DNA from: an uncultured virus (IMG/VR IMGVR_UViG_2554235432_000003)
Lineage: Duplodnaviria; Heunggongvirae; Uroviricota; Caudoviricetes
Length of the DNA: 20,000 nucleotides
Virus record (IMG/VR): IMGVR_UViG_2554235432_000003
Coordinates: 54,909 to 74,908 of that record
Direction: 5' to 3' (one strand)
In this document: positions 1 to 16,878 of the stretch, piece by piece
Layout of the letters: each line of letters opens with the position of its first letter
Numbering within the stretch: position 1 is the stretch's first letter
The notes under the pieces: generated by a model
Told to the model about the DNA's origin: nothing
The model's input: only the letters and a program-made list of their open reading frames with translations
Databases searched by the model: none
Translations under genes and position numbers: made by a program

Positions 1-35
1 TCATCTTGTTAGTACTTAGCTCGCCAGCTTACTAA
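1..35 (+). CDS. 3' end of Ibs-like small hydrophobic peptide (type I toxin candidate), 5'-truncated by window edge
   Basis: Frame from nt 3 reads ILLVLSSPAY-stop (TAA 33-35). It has the same type of C-terminus as the peptide at 16329-16391 (LIVLSSSAY) and E. coli IbsC (MMRLVIILIVLLLISFSAY). Confidence 0.7.
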   Translation, partial: ILLVLSSPAY

Positions 36-80
36 TTTGATGATAATTTAACGAGAGGGAGAAATCTCTCTCGTTCTTCA
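1..80 (-). ncRNA. Putative Sib-like cis-antisense RNA (5' part), copy 1
   Basis: Minus-strand promoter at 87-115 predicts a start near 80. An 11-bp stem at 50-75 follows, then sequence antisense to the peptide ORF. The 3' end lies outside the window. Confidence 0.55.
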
Positions 81-86
81 AAACTA

Positions 87-115
87 ATGTTAAGGATTTA
101 TTATGGCGATGTCAA
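87..115 (-). promoter_or_regulatory. Sigma70-type promoter for antisense RNA copy 1
   Basis: TTGACA (115-110), 17-nt spacer, TAACAT (92-87); overlaps the RBS and start of ORF 103..291. Confidence 0.6.
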
Positions 116-291
116 GAACCGAAATTGTTAAACGCAGTGAGGAAAAACACGGTATTAAACTCAAAGCCTTCAAACTTCCTTTAGTTGTGATTGCTGAAAT
201 TGAGCAGTTAAGTACAGAGTTAAATATTCCACAAAATCAGTTGATTATTCAAGCCGTTGAGCTGTTTAAGCAATCGCAGAAAGGGGCGTAA
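103..291 (+). CDS. Small ribbon-helix-helix-like DNA-binding protein
   Basis: AAGGA RBS. Pattern of beta-strand KAFKL, helix (VVIAEIEQLSTELN) and helix (QNQLIIQAVELF) is typical of RHH/CopG-like folds. Confidence 0.7.
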   Translation: MAMSRTEIVKRSEEKHGIKLKAFKLPLVVIAEIEQLSTELNIPQNQLIIQAVELFKQSQKGA

Positions 292-328
292 TGCCCTTTA
301 TTAAAACGCCCTCAAAATCAAGGGCGTT
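281..328. terminator. Two hairpins between convergent genes
   Basis: AAGGGGC/GCCCTTT (281-299) and AACGCCCT/AGGGCGTT (305-328) with an A/T-rich stretch between them. Confidence 0.6.
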
Positions 329-332
329 GCCA

Positions 333-947
333 TTAATTCACTTTCAACGCCTTCAGCGTTTCAATAAATTGCGGAATGTACTTATCAAAGGCTTTCATCA
401 ACACAGGATCGGGGTTTTCGGTGTGGATAAAAAGCGTTTGTTTTTGATATTCAGGGCAGTAGCTGACAAAATCCCAACTGGCATAACCCGTAACCCATAA
501 GGCGACTTGTACCTGTATGATGTACTCACTGGGTACCACGCCCTCAATGATATATTTGATGTGGGTTTTCATTTTGGGGCATTTGATTTCTAAGCCTTTT
601 CGTAAGGTTGGGATAAGTCCATCGGGGCTTACCATCATATCTTTGTCGGCATTGCGATATACACCACCAACCTGAACGACATCATTGCCTGTGGCGAACT
701 CATACGCCATTCTTGCTTGTTCTTCAAGCTGATTACCTCGCAACATATCGCTGGATTTAAAGCCTTCTGTTAAGCCCTCAATGCTTTCTGCGACAAGTTC
801 GGCAAGGTAGCTTGTCCACGCACTTGATTTTTTACCGCTTGGGGTGACGATATTTGACACCCCTGTTGCAGTGGGAATACCTAATCGTGCGGTAAGCCAT
901 TCTTCTGTGCCTTGCTCACAGTTGAGTGTGATCAGGTTTTCTATCAT
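333..947 (-). CDS. exo: YqaJ/lambda-exonuclease family recombination nuclease
   Basis: QGTEEWLTARLGIPTAT, RGNQLE, SPDGL, LEIKCP and YIIQVQ motifs. Confidence 0.92.
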   Translation of the reverse strand: MIENLITLNCEQGTEEWLTARLGIPTATGVSNIVTPSGKKSSAWTSYLAELVAESIEGLTEGFKSSDMLRGNQLEEQARMAYEFATGNDVVQVGGVYRNADKDMMVSPDGLIPTLRKGLEIKCPKMKTHIKYIIEGVVPSEYIIQVQVALWVTGYASWDFVSYCPEYQKQTLFIHTENPDPVLMKAFDKYIPQFIETLKALKVN

Positions 948-1810
948 AACGGTATATTTTCCCCTAGGTTTTCGCTTTGTGCCTGTGATTTATCAACACG
1001 CTCATTCAAGATTTTGATTAAATGTTCAGCTTTGTCTTTCGGTAGTTGATCAAGGCTGTTTACACCATAGTACGCAATAGCTTTGGCGACATCGGTTTGT
1101 GTAATTTGGATAAGTTGATCGAGTTGTTGGCGTTGTTCATCAGTGATCCTAACAACGCCATCTACATCGATTACGGTTTGTTGTGGTGAAGCTGGATTAA
1201 TAGGCTCTTCAGTTATCTCATCAGCAGTGATTACACCGCCCAATTCATCAGGAAATGCTTTACGCAATGCACCCGCTTCAGCACATTTAGCAAGCTGCCC
1301 TCGAGGGCGTTTCGTCCACATTGAATTAACTTTATATTTTCCTGTTCGTTGTTTGTCTTTCCATATTTCTGTTATTGCACAGGCTTCGGTAAAATACTCA
1401 GTATGAGAAAATGCACAACGTTCACCATTAACAAAACGATAAACAGTTACTTTGCACCATTCAGGAGCATTCACACCAAGATATTCTATAGTATCGCCAA
1501 ATACAGGATCATCTTGTCCTGCCATTTGCCCGGTACGAAATGCTGTAATTCGTTGTTCATAAATACCCGGCATAATTACATCACGCCATTCTTTTTCTGC
1601 TGTTTTTGCATCCGTTACGTTCATTGGTACAATATGACAAGGTTTCTTGAGAATATCCATTTTACGAGCCTTGCAATAATCAATCGCAAGTAAAATACTT
1701 TCGTCTTTCGCACCAGGGAAAATGCTGTTTTGTAATGTACTCCATACTGCGTGGTCTATGCCACGTTCAGAAAGTGCGGTTTGAATGTTGGATGGTAAGT
1801 TTGTTGTCAT
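944..1810 (-). CDS. bet: Phage single-strand annealing recombinase Bet (RecT/Bet family)
   Basis: DYCKARKMDILKKPCHIVP and W-x-KRPRGQLAKCAEAGALRKAFP motifs; ATGA overlap with exo. Confidence 0.9.
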   Translation of the reverse strand: MTTNLPSNIQTALSERGIDHAVWSTLQNSIFPGAKDESILLAIDYCKARKMDILKKPCHIVPMNVTDAKTAEKEWRDVIMPGIYEQRITAFRTGQMAGQDDPVFGDTIEYLGVNAPEWCKVTVYRFVNGERCAFSHTEYFTEACAITEIWKDKQRTGKYKVNSMWTKRPRGQLAKCAEAGALRKAFPDELGGVITADEITEEPINPASPQQTVIDVDGVVRITDEQRQQLDQLIQITQTDVAKAIAYYGVNSLDQLPKDKAEHLIKILNERVDKSQAQSENLGENIPL

Positions 1811-2906: not shown

Positions 2907-3433
2907 TTTGTTGCTCCTGTGTTTTCTTCACCATTTCCGCTAATGCTCCGAACATCTGCGGTTCAAGTACAATCGTGCTGGCGTTGGCTCTTCTGTCTAG
3001 CATTAGGCGGACATTGCCGTTTTTATCTACGAGATAGCCATTTAAGCCGTAAGGGGTAAATGGTTTGCGTTTGGGCTGTGATGGCTTCGGCTCAGGCTCA
3101 ACTTGTTCTGTTGGTGCTGTTTCAATCTCAACTTGTTCCGTCGGTGCTATTTGCTCAACCTGCTCTGCTTGGATAACTGTTACTTTTAGCCCAACTTTTT
3201 TAGCTTGCTCAATTACAATCGGATTATGCCCTTCGATTTCAGGGTAGTGAGGGATAGCTCTTTTACCGACTAAGCCTTTTTGACTGTTATATCTATCAAT
3301 GGCTTTGTTTAAATTTCGGATAGCAAGAATTTCCGATGTCATTGGTACGCCTTGAAACTCTAGGTGTTTATCCACCCACATTTCACCGAAGTATTTTTTA
3401 TTTGGGTTTTTGTAAAATTTGAAGTTTGATCAT
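2893..3433 (-). CDS. Hypothetical phage protein with internal (A)PTEQVE repeats; probable start 3433 with a 1-nt insertion near 3425-3430
   Basis: ORF 2893..3381 stays open upstream (NFKFYKNPNKKYFGE). An ATG overlapping the previous stop (ATGA, with AGGAG RBS) is one base out of frame. Confidence 0.65.
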
Positions 3434-3832: not shown

Positions 3833-4485
3833 TTATAGGATTGACTTTTTAAATGTCGGGTCGAACTCTCGAACGTGTTTTAGTACTCGCCAGTTGCTTG
3901 TGTAGTCGTAGGCGATGTCTTTGGTTAGGCGTTGGATAACCTTGTGGGCATTTCGTGCAGTTGTTGCGTATTCGTAGCCTTGTCCGTAAACCATTGCACT
4001 GTAATTTGAGCCGAGTGCGTTGAGTGGGGTGTAGATGGCTCTGAATGTGTGTATGCCCCGTATGAAGGCGAACCACGCCCAAGTGAGGTCGAGTAGGTCA
4101 TCTTCGGTAAACTCGAAGGTGTATTTCTTTCGGGTTCGGGCAAGGCGAGTGGTTGCGGTTGGTTTTGCAAATTTGCTCTACGTTCGCACTCGATGAAGTA
4201 TTTGCGGATTTGTCGTCCTTTTTCGTTGCGTTCGACCATTGCGAGTTCTTTTCCCATATCAAGTGTGATGTGGTATTCCTTGCGTGGTCTGCCGTTTGTG
4301 CGTTCGTGAACGATGATGTAGTCTTCGTCTTGGATAAAGCCGTAGTCGGTTATGCGGTTACAAATCCATTCTGCGAAACGCATATTTACTTCTAGGAATG
4401 TATGTAGCTCACGAGCATTTGCCAGTTGAATTGCTTGATTGGCGATTTGACCGTTGAAAACAGTGATAAGGTTTGAATTTGTCAT
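3833..4485 (-). CDS. ant: AntA/AntB-family antirepressor, frameshifted at ~4128-4130
   Basis: N-domain [11 protein letters not shown]...FAEWI...YGFIQDEDY...[27 protein letters not shown]. Adding one A gives [19 protein letters not shown]...KKSIL-stop (3833), a plausible antirepressor C-domain. Confidence 0.85.
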
Positions 4486-4540
4486 TTTGATTGTCCTTTG
4501 AGATAAGTTTTTAAACTCACCACCGCAGAGACCAATCATT

Positions 4541-4619
4541 GGTGGTGAACTGAACAGAATTGGTCTTACCGCTCTCAAAGGTACACGGCGTCCTTTCGGA
4601 CTTCCATTCAGCCCACCAT
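4541..4619 (-). ncRNA. c4: c4-type antisense RNA (phage P1 C4 family)
   Basis: ATGGTGGGCTGAATGG...GTCCGAAAGGAC...TTCTGTTCAGTTCACCACC fold. Loop elements CCTTTGAGA (4581-4573) and AGACCAAT (4566-4559) are complementary to two target pairs in the same transcript. Confidence 0.85.
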
Positions 4620-4623
4620 TGGA

Positions 4624-5918: not shown

Positions 5919-5995
5919 TGGCGACCGCAGAGAGACTCGAACTCTCAACCTACTGCTTAGAAGGCAGTTGCTCTATCCGATTGAGCTATGCGGTC
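5919..5995 (-). tRNA. tRNA-Arg(UCU), prophage-encoded
   Basis: 77 nt: GACCGCA/TGCGGTC acceptor stem, GCTC/GAGC D stem, ACTGC-CTTCTAA-GCAGT anticodon arm, GAGAG-TTCGAGT-CTCTC T arm, encoded CCA. Confidence 0.95.
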
Positions 5996-7404: not shown

Positions 7405-7824
7405 CTAGTGGGGGATAATAGTAAAGTGGCGATTGAGTTTACTATAAGCTTTCTCGACAAATTCTACTTTGGTTGCGTGCTTAAAATCCAGCAAGCGGTC
7501 AATTTGTGGTAGGTGTACATCTAAACGTCTTGCCATTTCTGCTTTTCGTACATCTTGTTTAATCATTTCATTGAGTAAAAACACTTTCATTGATTGAAGA
7601 ATAGATAAATCGACGGTGTGTTGTCCCTCTTTTACAGGGCTTGGTAATGGAATGGTGCGTCTATCATCAAAATAAAATTCAAGAGCTGCCGCTAAGCCAT
7701 CTTTTGCTTCAAGTAATGCTTCTTCAATATCTTCGCCAACGCTTGCCATTTCGGGAATATCCGGACAAGTCACTAAGTAGGTATTATTGTCATCTTTGGT
7801 GATTTCTACGGGGTAACGTAACAT
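7405..7824 (-). CDS. hicB: HicB antitoxin
   Basis: YPVEITKDD.YLVTCPDIPE...GEDIEEAL.EAKD N-domain plus C-terminal HTH (RKAEMARRLDVHLPQIDRLLD). Confidence 0.93.
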   Translation of the reverse strand: MLRYPVEITKDDNNTYLVTCPDIPEMASVGEDIEEALLEAKDGLAAALEFYFDDRRTIPLPSPVKEGQHTVDLSILQSMKVFLLNEMIKQDVRKAEMARRLDVHLPQIDRLLDFKHATKVEFVEKAYSKLNRHFTIIPH

Positions 7825-7863: not shown

Positions 7864-8046
7864 TTACTTAAGATCTAAGTCTTTTTTAATTTTATTCACT
7901 AAACCTGTACCAATCTCTTTACTGCCGTGATATGGGAAAACAGATTGTTTGCCGTTTAGTGTTACCTTTCGATGGCTTCCTCGCTTTTGTGTTTCGATTT
8001 CGCAACCTTGTGCAAGTAAGTATCTCAGGAACTCGCTGTATTTCAT
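7864..8046 (-). CDS. hicA: HicA mRNA interferase toxin (start corrected to 8046)
   Basis: MKYSEFLRYLLAQG...RGSHRK...PYHGSKEIGTGLVNKIKKDL; AAGGAGG RBS. Confidence 0.93.
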   Translation of the reverse strand: MKYSEFLRYLLAQGCEIETQKRGSHRKVTLNGKQSVFPYHGSKEIGTGLVNKIKKDLDLK

Positions 8047-8075
8047 AAGAACCTCCTTATCAAAACAGCAAAGGT

Positions 8076-8136
8076 ATAATACAACATTTTTGTTGTTTGT
8101 ACAACATTTTTGTTGTTTGTACAACAATTTTGTTGT
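8076..8136 (-). promoter_or_regulatory. hicAB promoter with three palindromic operators at 20-bp period
   Basis: TTGTAC (8104-8099)-N17-TATTAT (8081-76); ACAACA-N4-TGTTGT at 8081, 8101 and 8121. Confidence 0.75.
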
Positions 8137-10455: not shown

Positions 10456-11112
10456 CTACAAGTAGCTCCTATGCTCAACCGCCACGCCTATAATACGAAT
10501 ATCTTGTTTCATTGAACTGAGAGTTGGGAAATCTTGATTTAATGGCACTAGCTCAAAATGTGGATTGCCTGATGGTGATAATTCACCTAATTCACGATAA
10601 CGTTTTAAGGTAGCTTCACCATTACCATTCACAGCTGCGACGAAATCTCCAGGATGTGGGCGTTTTCTTATATCGATTAACACCAAGTCCCCTTCGCTGA
10701 ATTTAGGTTCCATAGACATTCCGGTCACTCGTAAGAAAAACGCATTTGGACCTGCGTCAATTTCAGTGTCGATATAGTCATAGCCTTCTGTATCTCGATA
10801 GTCAAAGACTTCAGGCCATACTCCAGCTTGAATTGAGCTAATTAAAGGGTATGAGTATGAATTCTTAACTATTACAGGCTCTACATTCGGGTCGCCAAAA
10901 GCAAGCTTTGCTGGATCTATACCAATAACTTTTGCTATCACTTCAATATCATCAAGATCAGGCATTCTTACATTTGTTTCGTAGTTAGCAATTCTAGATT
11001 GCCCCCATTTAGAACGCTCTCTTGTATCAATTTTTGATACAGCTTCTGCAAAATCCTTTTGGTTCATTCCTGTTTTGGCTCTAAAAGCTTTTATCCGCTC
11101 ACCTATTTTCAT
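10456..11112 (-). CDS. cI: CI-like repressor (HTH plus S24 autopeptidase)
   Basis: N-terminal HTH, Ala-Gly site (IQAG), GMSMEP serine and ATLKRY lysine motifs; divergent from cro. Confidence 0.95.
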   Translation of the reverse strand: MKIGERIKAFRAKTGMNQKDFAEAVSKIDTRERSKWGQSRIANYETNVRMPDLDDIEVIAKVIGIDPAKLAFGDPNVEPVIVKNSYSYPLISSIQAGVWPEVFDYRDTEGYDYIDTEIDAGPNAFFLRVTGMSMEPKFSEGDLVLIDIRKRPHPGDFVAAVNGNGEATLKRYRELGELSPSGNPHFELVPLNQDFPTLSSMKQDIRIIGVAVEHRSYL

Positions 11113-11244: not shown

Positions 11245-11451
11245 ATGAATAATCTTGCAAAAGTAAGGGAAAGCGTAGGTATTACTCAAAAGCAATTAGC
11301 CGATCAACTCGGATTTGGACAACCAAGAATAGCTAACTATGAAACTGGTAATCGAACTCCATCGTTAGCTGATGCTAGAAGAATTGTATCTGCTCTTAAT
11401 AAATTTGGTGCTACAACATCTTTAGACGACGTTTTCCCTGTTGGCAGTTAA
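11245..11451 (+). CDS. cro: Cro-like HTH regulator
   Basis: 68-aa XRE HTH; recognition helix QPRIANYE nearly matches CI QSRIANYE. Confidence 0.9.
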   Translation: MNNLAKVRESVGITQKQLADQLGFGQPRIANYETGNRTPSLADARRIVSALNKFGATTSLDDVFPVGS

Positions 11452-15097: not shown

Positions 15098-15638
15098 ATG
15101 CAAATGCTGTGGTGGTGAGTTTAAGTCTGCGGATAGCTTTAGAAAATGGTGTAGTGCTGAATGTGGTGTGAAACTTGCCAAAATAGCCCAAGAGAAAGCA
15201 CGTCAAAAAGCCATAGAAAAGCGAAATCGAGAAGAAAGGGCAAAGATTAAAGCAACGAGAGAACGCTTAAAATCTCGTTCTGAATGGCTTAAAGACGCTC
15301 AGGCTGTTTTTAATGAATACATTCGTTTACGAGATAAAGATGAGCCTTGTATTTCGTGCCAGCGTTTTCATCAAGGTCAATATCACGCAGGGCATTATCG
15401 CACGGTAAAAGCGATGCCAGAGCTGAGATTTAATGAGGACAATGTTCATAAACAATGCAGTGCTTGTAACAATCATTTGAGCGGAAACATTACAGAATAC
15501 CGTATCAACCTTGTACGTAAAATCGGGGCAGAGCGAGTAGAAGCATTGGAAAGCTATCACCCTCCTGTGAAGTGGTCGGATGAGGATTGTAAGGAAATTA
15601 TTAAAACGTATAGGGCGAAGATTAAGGAGTTGAAATGA
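15069..15638 (+). CDS. ninG: NinG/Rap HNH-type recombination endonuclease
   Basis: CKCC...CSAEC, FNEYIRLRD..PCISC, HAGHYR and NVHKQCSACNNHLSGN motifs. Confidence 0.92.
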   Translation: MIKPKVKKRKCKCCGGEFKSADSFRKWCSAECGVKLAKIAQEKARQKAIEKRNREERAKIKATRERLKSRSEWLKDAQAVFNEYIRLRDKDEPCISCQRFHQGQYHAGHYRTVKAMPELRFNEDNVHKQCSACNNHLSGNITEYRINLVRKIGAERVEALESYHPPVKWSDEDCKEIIKTYRAKIKELK

Positions 15639-16013
15639 TTAGATTGCATATCAGCATTGACGATATTTTGAATGTTTGGGTTCGTCGCTGGGCTTCTCAT
15701 CGTGGGTGCCGTGGTTATCCATCATTACAATCCTTTATGCCTGAGGCGACTGTTAAAATTACCAAGTATAGTATTGATGAACTGTCAGAGGAACATTATC
15801 TTAAGCTAGATGAAGCTGTGATGACATTACACGATTTGAACTTAGAAGCCTATCAGGTGTTAATGGCGGTGGTTTTTACAGGGGCAGGATAAGAAGAATA
15901 TTTGTCTTGAAATGCATATTTCACCTACTACATTTGATAACCGTTTACGCACCGCACGAGATTTTATGGAAGGGGCCGTGTTTGGTTCGGGGTTGATTAG
16001 ACTGAAGTTTTAG
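15635..16013 (+). CDS. Late antiterminator Q, frameshifted at ~15872
   Basis: WVRRW...GYPS N-terminus. Removing one G gives VFLQGQDKKNICLEMHISPTTFDNRLRTARDFMEG (HTH) to TAG 16013. Last gene of the nin region. Confidence 0.75.
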
Positions 16014-16021
16014 GCGTATTG

Positions 16022-16240
16022 CTACGCCTGATGTTGCCGATAAATTTCACAAAGTTTTTTAATGGCTTCGGCTTTCTTGCCGCCGATTTCAGCAAGTATT
16101 GCCACAAATTCGTCCGCAACAGGCGTTTCCATACGCACAGAAAATTGCTTAACCTTGCCTTCAGCAAGCATACGTTTGTTATATTCGTTCGCAGTTTTAG
16201 AACGAAGTTTGCGAGAATGTTCAGTCATTGAATTTGCCAT
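16022..16240 (-). CDS. Small ribbon-helix-helix-like protein
   Basis: Strand KQFSVRM, helix PVADEFVAILAEIG, helix KAEAIKKLCE; AGGT RBS. Confidence 0.7.
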   Translation of the reverse strand: MANSMTEHSRKLRSKTANEYNKRMLAEGKVKQFSVRMETPVADEFVAILAEIGGKKAEAIKKLCEIYRQHQA

Positions 16241-16250
16241 AGTTACCTAC

Positions 16251-16279
16251 TTGATTTTTTAAAACGTTGGTTGTATAGT
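16251..16279 (+). promoter_or_regulatory. Promoter for antisense RNA copy 2
   Basis: TTGATT (16251-56)-N17-TATAGT (16274-79). Confidence 0.65.
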
Positions 16280-16285
16280 TTAGGA

Positions 16286-16441
16286 ACTGCCTAGCAGTGG
16301 GGGCAACCACCGCTAGGACTTTATCTGATTAGTAAGCTGATGAGCTTAACACAATCAGAATTAAGAAGATGATGATTTGATAGGTTTTCATCGTCTTAGT
16401 TCCTATTTTTAGTTGAGCGGTGAAAGCCGCTCTTCTTATTT
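16286..16441 (+). ncRNA. Putative Sib-like antisense RNA (~150 nt), copy 2
   Basis: Upstream promoter, 5' hairpin 16290-16317, full overlap of the peptide ORF and RBS, terminator GAGCGGT-GAAA-GCCGCTC (16415-32) plus T-rich tail. Confidence 0.65.
16329..16391 (-). CDS. Ibs-like 20-aa toxin peptide MKTYQIIIFLILIVLSSSAY
   Basis: Manual translation; AGGA RBS; Ibs-type length, hydrophobic core and SxxAY end. Confidence 0.8.
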   Translation of the reverse strand: MKTYQIIIFLILIVLSSSAY

Positions 16442-16465
16442 CCGCCCTATTGCGAAAACAAATAT

Positions 16466-16507
16466 ATTATAATTTACAAATAATAATTTATCAAGAATTA
16501 TTTGTAA
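16466..16507 (-). promoter_or_regulatory. Toxin-RHH operon promoter with operator
   Basis: TTGATA (16494-89)-N17-TATAAT (16471-66); perfect 11-bp inverted repeat TTACAAATAAT (16474-84) / ATTATTTGTAA (16497-507) around the -35. Confidence 0.7.
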
Positions 16508-16765: not shown

Positions 16766-16878
16766 TTGACGTCGTGCGAGAAAAGTAGTACATTTCAGCT
16801 ATGCTTGCAACTCGTACAAGCGAGAGAAAGCGAAATGATTTTGTAGCCCTGATCGGAAACGGTCGGGGCTTTTTGTTT
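16766..16878 (+). promoter_or_regulatory. Late promoter pR' and tR' terminator
   Basis: TTGACG-N17-TACATT (16766-16794), -10-like TATGCT near +1 (possible pause element), and AGCCCTGATCG/CGGTCGGGGCT stem plus T-run (~16846-16878). Confidence 0.7.

Follow-up and report, generated by a model that had tools for sequence, protein, structure and literature searches.

A family of small modules in Pasteurellaceae and Moraxellaceae prophages appears to join an Ibs/Sib-like toxin and antisense RNA to a gene for a ribbon-helix-helix (RHH) protein. We describe it from a 20,000-nucleotide (nt) stretch of an uncultured virus (hereafter the window), which comprises bases 54909-74908 of the 74,908-base provirus record IMGVR_UViG_2554235432_000003. 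Copy 1 of the module straddles the left edge of the window, copy 2 lies about 16 kb to its right and copy 3 lies outside the window, further to the left. We consider it probable, at roughly 60%, that each copy is a self-contained prophage moron, in essence an Ibs/Sib-type type I toxin-antitoxin system to which one gene has been added, and that it works as follows. A strong sense promoter would give rise to an mRNA for a membrane peptide of 19-23 amino acids (aa). This mRNA would be kept translationally inert by a 5' stem-loop and by its Shine-Dalgarno region, which would pair both with codons 5-7 and with the bases after a 3' hairpin. A convergent promoter between the hairpin and the next gene would produce a fully complementary antisense RNA that spans the whole toxin open reading frame (ORF), blocks translation and triggers cleavage. 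Sense transcription would pass the hairpin, because this has no U-tract, and read into the small RHH gene. Most likely, a dyad in the sense-promoter spacer is the binding site of the RHH protein, which would thereby repress the toxin-RHH transcript that encodes it and place a transcriptional lock on top of the RNA lock. From the sequence we infer the existence of the antisense RNA, the toxicity of the peptide, the binding of the RHH protein to the dyad and a role in prophage retention or abortive infection.

At 122 further loci, in prophages and genomes of Pasteurellaceae and Moraxellaceae, we found relatives of the small proteins. IMG/VR scans yielded 15, 65 and 21 loci, and a scan of named genomes gave 21 loci in 10 genera (Haemophilus, Rodentibacter, Seminibacterium, Mannheimia, Volucribacter, Actinobacillus, Caviibacterium, Glaesserella, Moraxella and Acinetobacter). 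A hydrophobic ORF of 17-23 aa lies just upstream in 118 of the 122; two of the rest have no upstream DNA, and the other two represent one degenerate locus. Of the 107 loci in the first set, 104 have the small ORF ahead of the RHH gene (L073 and L094 end without upstream DNA, and L086 has no small ORF), as do 20 of the 21 named-genome loci; the miss, L129, is the same place as L086 and has a degenerate protein gene. The spacing is 58-134 nt to the tblastn protein match, or 58-111 nt to the reset ATG. Relatives of the copy-1 protein are also encoded in 17 phage records, from Mannheimia phages (PHL101, 587AP2, 1152AP2 and others) and Moraxella phages. Four phage records were inspected, and in each of them some 200 bases ahead of the protein gene are unannotated and hold an Ibs-like ORF; the RHH gene itself is labelled ‘transcriptional regulator’ or ‘hypothetical protein’, and is unannotated in the Moraxella record H14. 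A megablast search of the phage collection with the module nucleotide sequence returned no match.

The small ORF is under purifying selection. Nonsynonymous divergence (dN) was lower than synonymous divergence (dS) in 211 of 214 usable peptide pairs, with a median dN/dS of 0.35, the pairs being non-independent. Most peptides end in S-x-P-A-Y, an ending that is near-invariant among the 19-aa forms, and M1, L11, P17 and Y19 are invariant in the 21 distinct forms of that length. An initial annotation, made from the window alone, had proposed a real family with paralogues rather than chance ORFs. The survey agrees with it: a third copy resides in the same provirus, the layout is kept across both bacterial families, selection acts on the peptide, and the antisense strand gives full-length, sub-threshold matches to the Rfam model SIB_RNA.

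We grouped 79 distinct modules into 31 clusters at 90% identity and compared their predicted RNAs. Antisense promoters were sought as strict sigma-70 matches between the toxin stop and RHH codon 7, with the expectation taken from dinucleotide shuffles. Such a promoter is present in 25 of the 31 clusters, against 2.19 expected and 6 on the sense strand of the same stretch; at a relaxed threshold of 8/12 the count is 28. All 31 clusters have a GC hairpin 3' of the toxin stop (7-12 pairs, 7-37 nt after the stop), with stems that vary in sequence. Compared with shuffles it is more stable in the sense RNA (mean z -3.0) than in the antisense RNA (-1.9), the sense form being the more stable in 21 of 31 clusters, and the GNRA-type loops and G-U pairs likewise speak for the sense RNA. 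A U-tract is absent from the hairpin, and we found no usable plus-strand promoter ahead of the RHH gene; for these two reasons the RHH gene is predicted to be co-transcribed with the toxin.

The bases directly after this hairpin pair with the Shine-Dalgarno region, over at least six contiguous pairs, in 26 of 31 clusters. At least eight different arm sequences were seen, indicating covariation: TTTGAAG/CTTCAAA in copy 1, TAGGAACT/AGTTCCTA in copy 2, TGGAGCT/GGCTCCA in copy 3, AAGGAGT/ACTCCTT in Moraxella and, with a double change, TGTGAAG/CTTCGCA in L109. When 25 copy-1-type modules were aligned, all 10 pairs of the 5' stem-loop were kept, with compensatory changes at 5 of the 10, and the Shine-Dalgarno sequence paired with codons 5-7. 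The copy-1 fold is also far more stable than its shuffles (z -8.2 for the sense strand, -7.1 for the antisense strand). In 26 of 31 clusters the 220 nt upstream of the toxin ATG contain a terminator on the minus strand. In the copy-2 and copy-3 types some 20 nt separate it from the ATG, which would give antisense RNAs of about 150-160 nt; in the copy-1 type it is placed beyond the sense promoter.

Sequencing data contain these regions. The copy-1 stretch or part of it was present in 20 of 24 runs, 11 being on record as RNA, from nine studies overall, and contigs from four RNA runs in four studies cover all three modules. Contig breaks at L108 positions 3318, 3370 and 3608 fall in sequence common to paralogues and do not mark transcript ends. 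Positions 3318 and 3370 are the loose ends of RNA-library contigs X1 and X6. The strains behind these two runs have a further paralogue, of the L052 type, whose peptide ends LLLWSLPVY and whose first 50 toxin-region bases are common with copy 1.

Copy 1 and copy 2 could be read element by element (Table 1). For copy 1 the initial annotation had described an ORF tail ending ILLVLSSPAY-stop, an 11-bp hairpin, a TTGACA-N17-TAACAT antisense promoter over the RHH start, a 62-aa RHH-like gene and a hairpin over its stop, and all of these hold. The tail is read in frame 3 and closes with TAA; the first hairpin has 11 pairs, one of them G-T; the -35 element of the promoter falls in RHH codons 3-4; the 62-aa ORF is present and is RHH by profile and fold; and a 6-bp stem encloses its stop codon. 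The first hairpin forms the 3' stem-loop in the RNA of the toxin cassette, and on the complementary strand it gives the predicted antisense RNA its 5' stem-loop. This RNA would start upstream of the RHH Shine-Dalgarno sequence and leave it uncovered. Most of what had been predicted for the DNA left of the window is found there: an ATG that opens a 19-aa ORF, a ribosome binding site, a near-consensus promoter with a dyad, and minus-strand terminators. The ORF tail thus has a start codon and is not the end of a long unrelated frame. GAAGAGGA precedes the ATG, the sense promoter reads TTGATT-17-TATAAT (10/12), and two minus-strand intrinsic terminators lie directly beyond it. A search of the 5' untranslated region under strict criteria gave no terminator for the antisense RNA of copy 1; the region has only a 7-bp stem whose loop is 14 nt long. 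The same order of elements had been noted 16 kb away, and it recurs there on the minus strand at 16022-16494, where the RHH gene likewise ends in a hairpin, with GCG-TAG inside it.

Table 1. Features of the modules and of the surrounding prophage. Positions refer to the window unless another coordinate is named; L001 is the locus including 1.5 kb left of the window, L001 1615 being window 115.
Feature	Position	Strand	Details
Copy 1, end of toxin ORF	1-35	+	last 10 codons and TAA; full ORF L001 1476-1535 = window -24..35, 19 aa, MFKYIILVIILLVLSSPAY
Copy 1, GC-rich hairpin 3' of toxin stop	50-75	+	AACGAGAGGGA-gaaa-TCTCTCTCGTT, GAAA loop
Copy 1, 3' arm of long-range pairing, CTTCAAA	76-82	+	partner TTTGAAG directly 5' of toxin Shine-Dalgarno, L001 1458-1464
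Copy 1, antisense promoter	87-115	-	TTGACA-17-TAACAT, 10/12; L001 1615-1587; predicted start near window 80
Copy 1, SIB_RNA sub-threshold match, part in window	1-115	-	full match L001 1459-1615
Copy 1, RHH1, 62-aa RHH protein	103-291	+	Shine-Dalgarno AAGGA 92-96
Copy 1, hairpin over RHH stop	280-285/294-299		6-bp stem enclosing stop codon 289-291
Copy 1, second hairpin	305-312/321-328		8 bp; between convergent RHH1 and YqaJ genes
Copy 2, sense promoter	16466-16494	-	TTGATA-17-TATAAT, 11/12
Copy 2, toxin mRNA 5' stem-loop	16438-16459	-	GTTTTCGC...GCGGAAAT
Copy 2, intrinsic terminator of antisense RNA	16415-16442	+	GAGCGGT-gaaa-GCCGCTC, then TTCTTATTTC; predicted antisense RNA ~155 nt
Copy 2, Shine-Dalgarno region and 5' arm of long-range pairing	16398-16405	-	TAGGAACT; L007 type, 8 contiguous pairs, z -4.9
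Copy 2, toxin ORF	16329-16391	-	20 aa, MKTYQIIIFLILIVLSSSAY, and stop
Copy 2, hairpin 3' of toxin stop	16290-16317	-	11 pairs
Copy 2, 3' arm (anti-Shine-Dalgarno)	16281-16288	-	AGTTCCTA
Copy 2, antisense promoter	16251-16279	+	TTGATT-17-TATAGT; begins SIB_RNA sub-threshold match 16251-16409 (+)
Copy 2, RHH2, 72-aa RHH protein	16022-16240	-	
Copy 3	G000:C1:51627-52105 = L002 1084-1562		same layout, 2.8 kb further left of copy 1
YqaJ exonuclease	333-947	-	early-left gene
RecT	944-1810	-	early-left gene
RecE-like gene		-	early-left gene
Anti-repressor Ant gene	3925-4578	-	early-left gene, with C4 antisense RNA
CI-like repressor	10456-11112		
Cro-like gene	11245-11451		
O-like, P-like, NinB, NinG genes			rightward, before the Q-like gene
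Q-like gene	15635-15892		rightward
Holin, endolysin, spanin, small terminase			beyond the Q-like gene

Copy 3 encodes a 23-aa peptide, MKIFRVLILVTVVLLTCCSGTVV, and a 72-aa RHH protein, RHH3, that is 47% identical to RHH1. It too has the hairpin, the minus-strand promoter and the minus-strand terminator; a copy-3 hairpin homologous to the copy-1 RHH-stop hairpin is terminator-like. The transcribed cassettes of the three copies are 64-69% identical, with no shared run longer than 12 bases. E. coli Sib RNAs repress their cognate ibs mRNAs only (PMC2943612). As the three copies appear too diverged to cross-pair, they are likely to act independently, each with a separate specificity.

RHH1 and RHH3 belong to phrog_3887 and RHH2 to phrog_27481. 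A family profile of RHH1 (29 sequences) matches CopG (1b01; E 2.9e-4), which is its best sequence match in the PDB. The AlphaFold2 model of RHH1, with a predicted local distance difference test score (pLDDT) of 80.5, has a helix at its N terminus, an extended segment and two further helices. In Foldseek it aligns with CopG at a TMt of 0.80 and a root-mean-square deviation of 1.7 Å; the top rows are mostly RHH proteins, all with E-values above 0.1. Between RHH1 and RHH2, BLASTP (E 0.13) and shallow profiles (9.3% probability) gave no homology at that depth, and the RHH2 model (pLDDT 69) gave no clear fold by Foldseek or VIA-align (no Z of 5 or more). We deepened the RHH2 alignment with a library search that yielded 60 relatives and a 35-sequence profile. 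This profile matches ParG (E 6.3e-4), NikR (E 9e-4) and CopG (E 0.023), and Pfam RHH_1 matches 5 of the 35 members. When the RHH1 and RHH2 families were compared by hhalign, they matched over the strand and both helices (86.8% probability, E 4.3e-6). Judged by these profiles and models, both small proteins are RHH proteins; the copy-2 protein had been called RHH-like, which only the deeper alignment brought out, and the two are distant homologues rather than unrelated folds. RHH proteins are 59-80 aa long among 53 distinct forms, and their lineages are interchanged behind cassettes that are 72-83% identical. Because cassettes this similar occur with either lineage, the slot seems to matter more than the particular protein that fills it.

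In the copy-1 subfamily the spacer of the sense promoter contains a 4-N4-4 dyad, TNNG-N4-CNNA, that in most cases read ends 1-3 nt before the -10 element. This dyad is upstream of the transcript, so its symmetry must act on DNA. Its half-sites vary over the subfamily (TTAG, TTGG, TAGG, TCGG), and the same half-site tends to accompany identical residues in the RHH strand; A/S, for instance, accompanies TCGG in both L052 and L115, which are separate lineages. The correspondence is imperfect. Across all types, 12 of 31 clusters have a spacer dyad whose arms are 5 bases or longer, where 5.29 would be expected. We conclude that the RHH protein is probably an autorepressor of the toxin-RHH transcript, with the support from dyads confined to the copy-1 subfamily. 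Separately, locus L043 of IMG/VR has the 10-base dyad TAGTTATCTA three times in and ahead of its sense promoter, which resembles an operator array for its RHH protein.

Alternatively, the RHH protein may be cargo that regulates other genes, of the phage or the host, in trans; the Ibs/Sib cassette would then be only an addiction or expression-control element, and the toxin would not be under RHH control. The sense promoters of the copy-2, copy-3 and Moraxella types, which have no significant dyad, would fit this view, as would the location of the modules in classical moron slots; the swapping of two distant RHH lineages behind cassettes of 72-83% identity resembles an exchange of cargo. However, the copy-1 dyad, TTAG-N4-CTAA (TTAGTTAGATAACTAA), occurs once in the 74.9-kb provirus and nowhere else in it, and the position of the dyad in the spacer stays constant while its sequence changes across the subfamily. 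Moreover, the RHH gene has no promoter of its own, so that its level would be tied to the toxin promoter. On balance we regard the cargo explanation as unlikely.

The toxin and antisense part of the module resembles a known system. At gathering scores, Rfam has no match for the modules. In E-value mode, the best Rfam match on the antisense strand is SIB_RNA for both copies, covering the entire model (1-147 of 147) at 37.2 bits for copy 1 (E 5.2e-6, 281-base scan) and 32.7 bits for copy 2 (E 8.1e-5). The promoter, 5' hairpin and UUAGUAAGCUGG segment of the model align with the promoter, the hairpin and the P-A-Y-stop codons of the module, and the model's own long-range closing helix is the counterpart of the pairing described above. 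The Pfam family Ibs_toxin (PF13956) matches the copy-1 peptide along its full length (1-19 of 19; 15.2 bits, E 0.0033) and two relatives at 21.3 bits (from a Moraxella phage) and 15.5 bits, all under the 27-bit cut-off. In the Ibs/Sib loci of E. coli (RF00113), too, the hydrophobic peptide is 19 aa long and ends S-x-P/S-A-Y, a genome has several diverged copies, and there is a cis-antisense gene with a TTGACA promoter and a 5' hairpin whose RNA covers the whole ORF (PMC8594479). In the Pasteurellales, Ibs homologues have already been listed, seven in H. somnus 2336 and one in H. influenzae 86-028NP (Fozo et al., 2010; PMC2887945), and unstranded RNA-seq found Ibs-like ORFs expressed in H. somni beside small hypothetical proteins (Kumar et al., 2012). 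A paper on Hfq and small RNAs in H. somni (PMC10204968) makes no mention of Sib, antitoxin or antisense. Taken together, the Ibs/Sib matches and the earlier Pasteurellales reports suggest that the toxin/antisense core is, as far as sequence comparison goes, a diverged member of this known kind. Unlike Ibs/Sib, every module has a downstream co-transcribed RHH gene, and the modules reside in prophages. A search of the full-text literature, with subscription journals and supplements outside its scope, found no dedicated RHH gene accompanying Ibs/Sib or any other type I system. The features that appear to be new are the RHH partner kept across the modules, the dyad in the promoter and the occurrence of several copies in one prophage.

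Other type I systems share parts of this design. In hok/sok and aapA1/isoA1, the toxin mRNA is locked by a long-distance interaction of its 5' and 3' ends that hides the ribosome binding site, and an antisense RNA adds control. The modules would be alike in both respects; in contrast, their peptides are unrelated to those of hok/sok and aapA1/isoA1, whose 3' processing step is not shown for the modules. To our knowledge, neither system has a gene for a protein regulator. Prophage-borne type I modules, such as those of phiCD630 in Clostridioides difficile, consist of a small toxin and an antisense RNA and have been proposed to stabilise the element (PMC7699646). They differ from the present modules in toxin family, in their Gram-positive host and in having no linked transcription factor.

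Circuits that combine an RHH protein with an antisense RNA are known from pMV158 (CopG/RNAII) and phage P22 (Arc/sar, in immI), where a small RHH autorepressor and a countertranscript share one short operon. The small ORF could then be a leader, translated or not, with the antisense RNA and the folds serving to control the RHH gene as in copG-RNAII or arc-sar-ant. The leader of the modules is heavily structured, the RHH gene is co-transcribed downstream and, as in pMV158 and P22, the antisense promoter overlaps the start of an operon gene. In those circuits, however, the antisense RNA targets a gene downstream of the RHH gene (repB, ant), whereas in the modules it would lie over the toxin gene upstream, with nothing after the RHH gene except a terminator; transcription of the predicted antisense RNA would lead away from the RHH gene and leave its Shine-Dalgarno sequence uncovered. 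Also against a leader are the purifying selection on the peptide, the near-invariance of S-x-P-A-Y in the 19-aa forms, and Ibs_toxin being the sole, if sub-threshold, match among Pfam families. According to a review, the toxicity of IbsC requires its C-terminal residues (PMC8309996). A leader function is therefore improbable in our judgement.

Many RHH proteins are type II antitoxins, and this suggests a third possibility, namely that the RHH protein neutralises the peptide directly and that the antisense promoter is incidental. MazE, ParD and CopA are among the fold matches, and the two genes are tightly linked. Yet at 59-80 aa the RHH proteins have little beyond the DNA-binding fold to provide a toxin-binding tail, the antisense promoter is kept far more often than expected, and the antisense strand has the SIB_RNA-like match. 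Furthermore, no known protein-toxin family adjoins: the neighbours are the peptide and YqaJ/RecT in copy 1, and the Q-like and lysis genes in copy 2. We thus give a type II-like arrangement very little credence. That the ORFs and motifs are chance features of AT-rich intergenic DNA can be practically dismissed, since, short as each element is and although AT-rich promoter-like matches appear in 2-6 of 31 clusters in controls, the layout recurs with covariation in 31 clusters from two bacterial families, with dN below dS and fold z-scores of -7 to -8.

Several observations weigh against reading the modules as Ibs/Sib-type systems under an RHH autorepressor. Both SIB_RNA scores are below the gathering score of 56, and the Ibs_toxin score of copy 1 is below the 27-bit cut-off; sub-threshold Ibs_toxin matches also occur in 10 of 14 control genomes, and Pfam has no family for the copy-2 and copy-3 peptides. 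In copy 3 the peptide lacks the S-x-P-A-Y ending and has TCCSGTVV in its place. A strict antisense promoter is missing in 6 of the 31 clusters. The RNA-library contigs are unstranded and give neither strand nor ends nor levels, and may include DNA carry-over. Regarding the operator, spacer dyads are no better than shuffles in the copy-2, copy-3 and Moraxella types, and the partial correlation between spacer similarity and RHH similarity is weak (0.18, reached in 20 of 2000 permutations).

Where type I toxins are under transcriptional control, this is, as far as is known, exerted by host regulators such as LexA; a gene for a protein regulator that accompanies Ibs-type cassettes would form an added control layer, and the linkage spans two bacterial families as well as sequenced Mannheimia and Moraxella phages. 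We tentatively propose a more specific version, a hybrid design with two locks on an Ibs-type toxin, namely its antisense RNA and an RHH autorepressor that is dedicated to it and co-transcribed with it. Operator and RHH specificities would have diversified and two distant RHH lineages would be interchangeable behind the same toxin cassette, which could enable a temperate phage to keep several copies, each insulated from the others, for retention or for abortive infection. If true, the modules would represent naturally orthogonal triples of promoter, repressor and antisense RNA. They would also explain the lone, backward small ‘transcriptional regulator’ genes found in prophage operons, and many genome annotations, in which the toxin and the RNA are missing, would need correction.

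The provirus is a lambdoid prophage, and both copies oppose the phage operon around them, as had been noted at the outset: copy 1 is convergent with the minus-strand recombination genes YqaJ and RecT, and copy 2 is opposed to its flanking genes, between the Q-like gene and the lysis genes. To the right of copy 2, at 16766-16870 (+), a promoter-like site, TTGACG-17-TACATT, is followed by a strong hairpin with a T-run. The two could represent the late promoter that follows the Q-like gene and its first terminator, which would place copy 2 between Q and the late promoter. To the left of copy 1, a minus-strand ORF at L001 770-1090 (C1:54178-54498) contains, within its coding region, a long imperfect run of short repeats with caccgaacacccgagc-like units. 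The 5' end of the Ant gene coincides with a C4 antisense RNA at 4538-4623 (-), which scores above the gathering score (Rfam RF01695, 57.8 bits); C4 and Ant form a P1/P7-type immunity element within a lambdoid prophage of Pasteurellaceae type. The window also encodes a HicB-like antitoxin at 7405-7824 (-) (phrog_497, E 4e-43), beside which a small ORF at 7864-8127 (-) could be the HicA partner. Finally, a tRNA gene lies in the early region of the prophage, at 5922-5995 (-) (Rfam, 72.9 bits).

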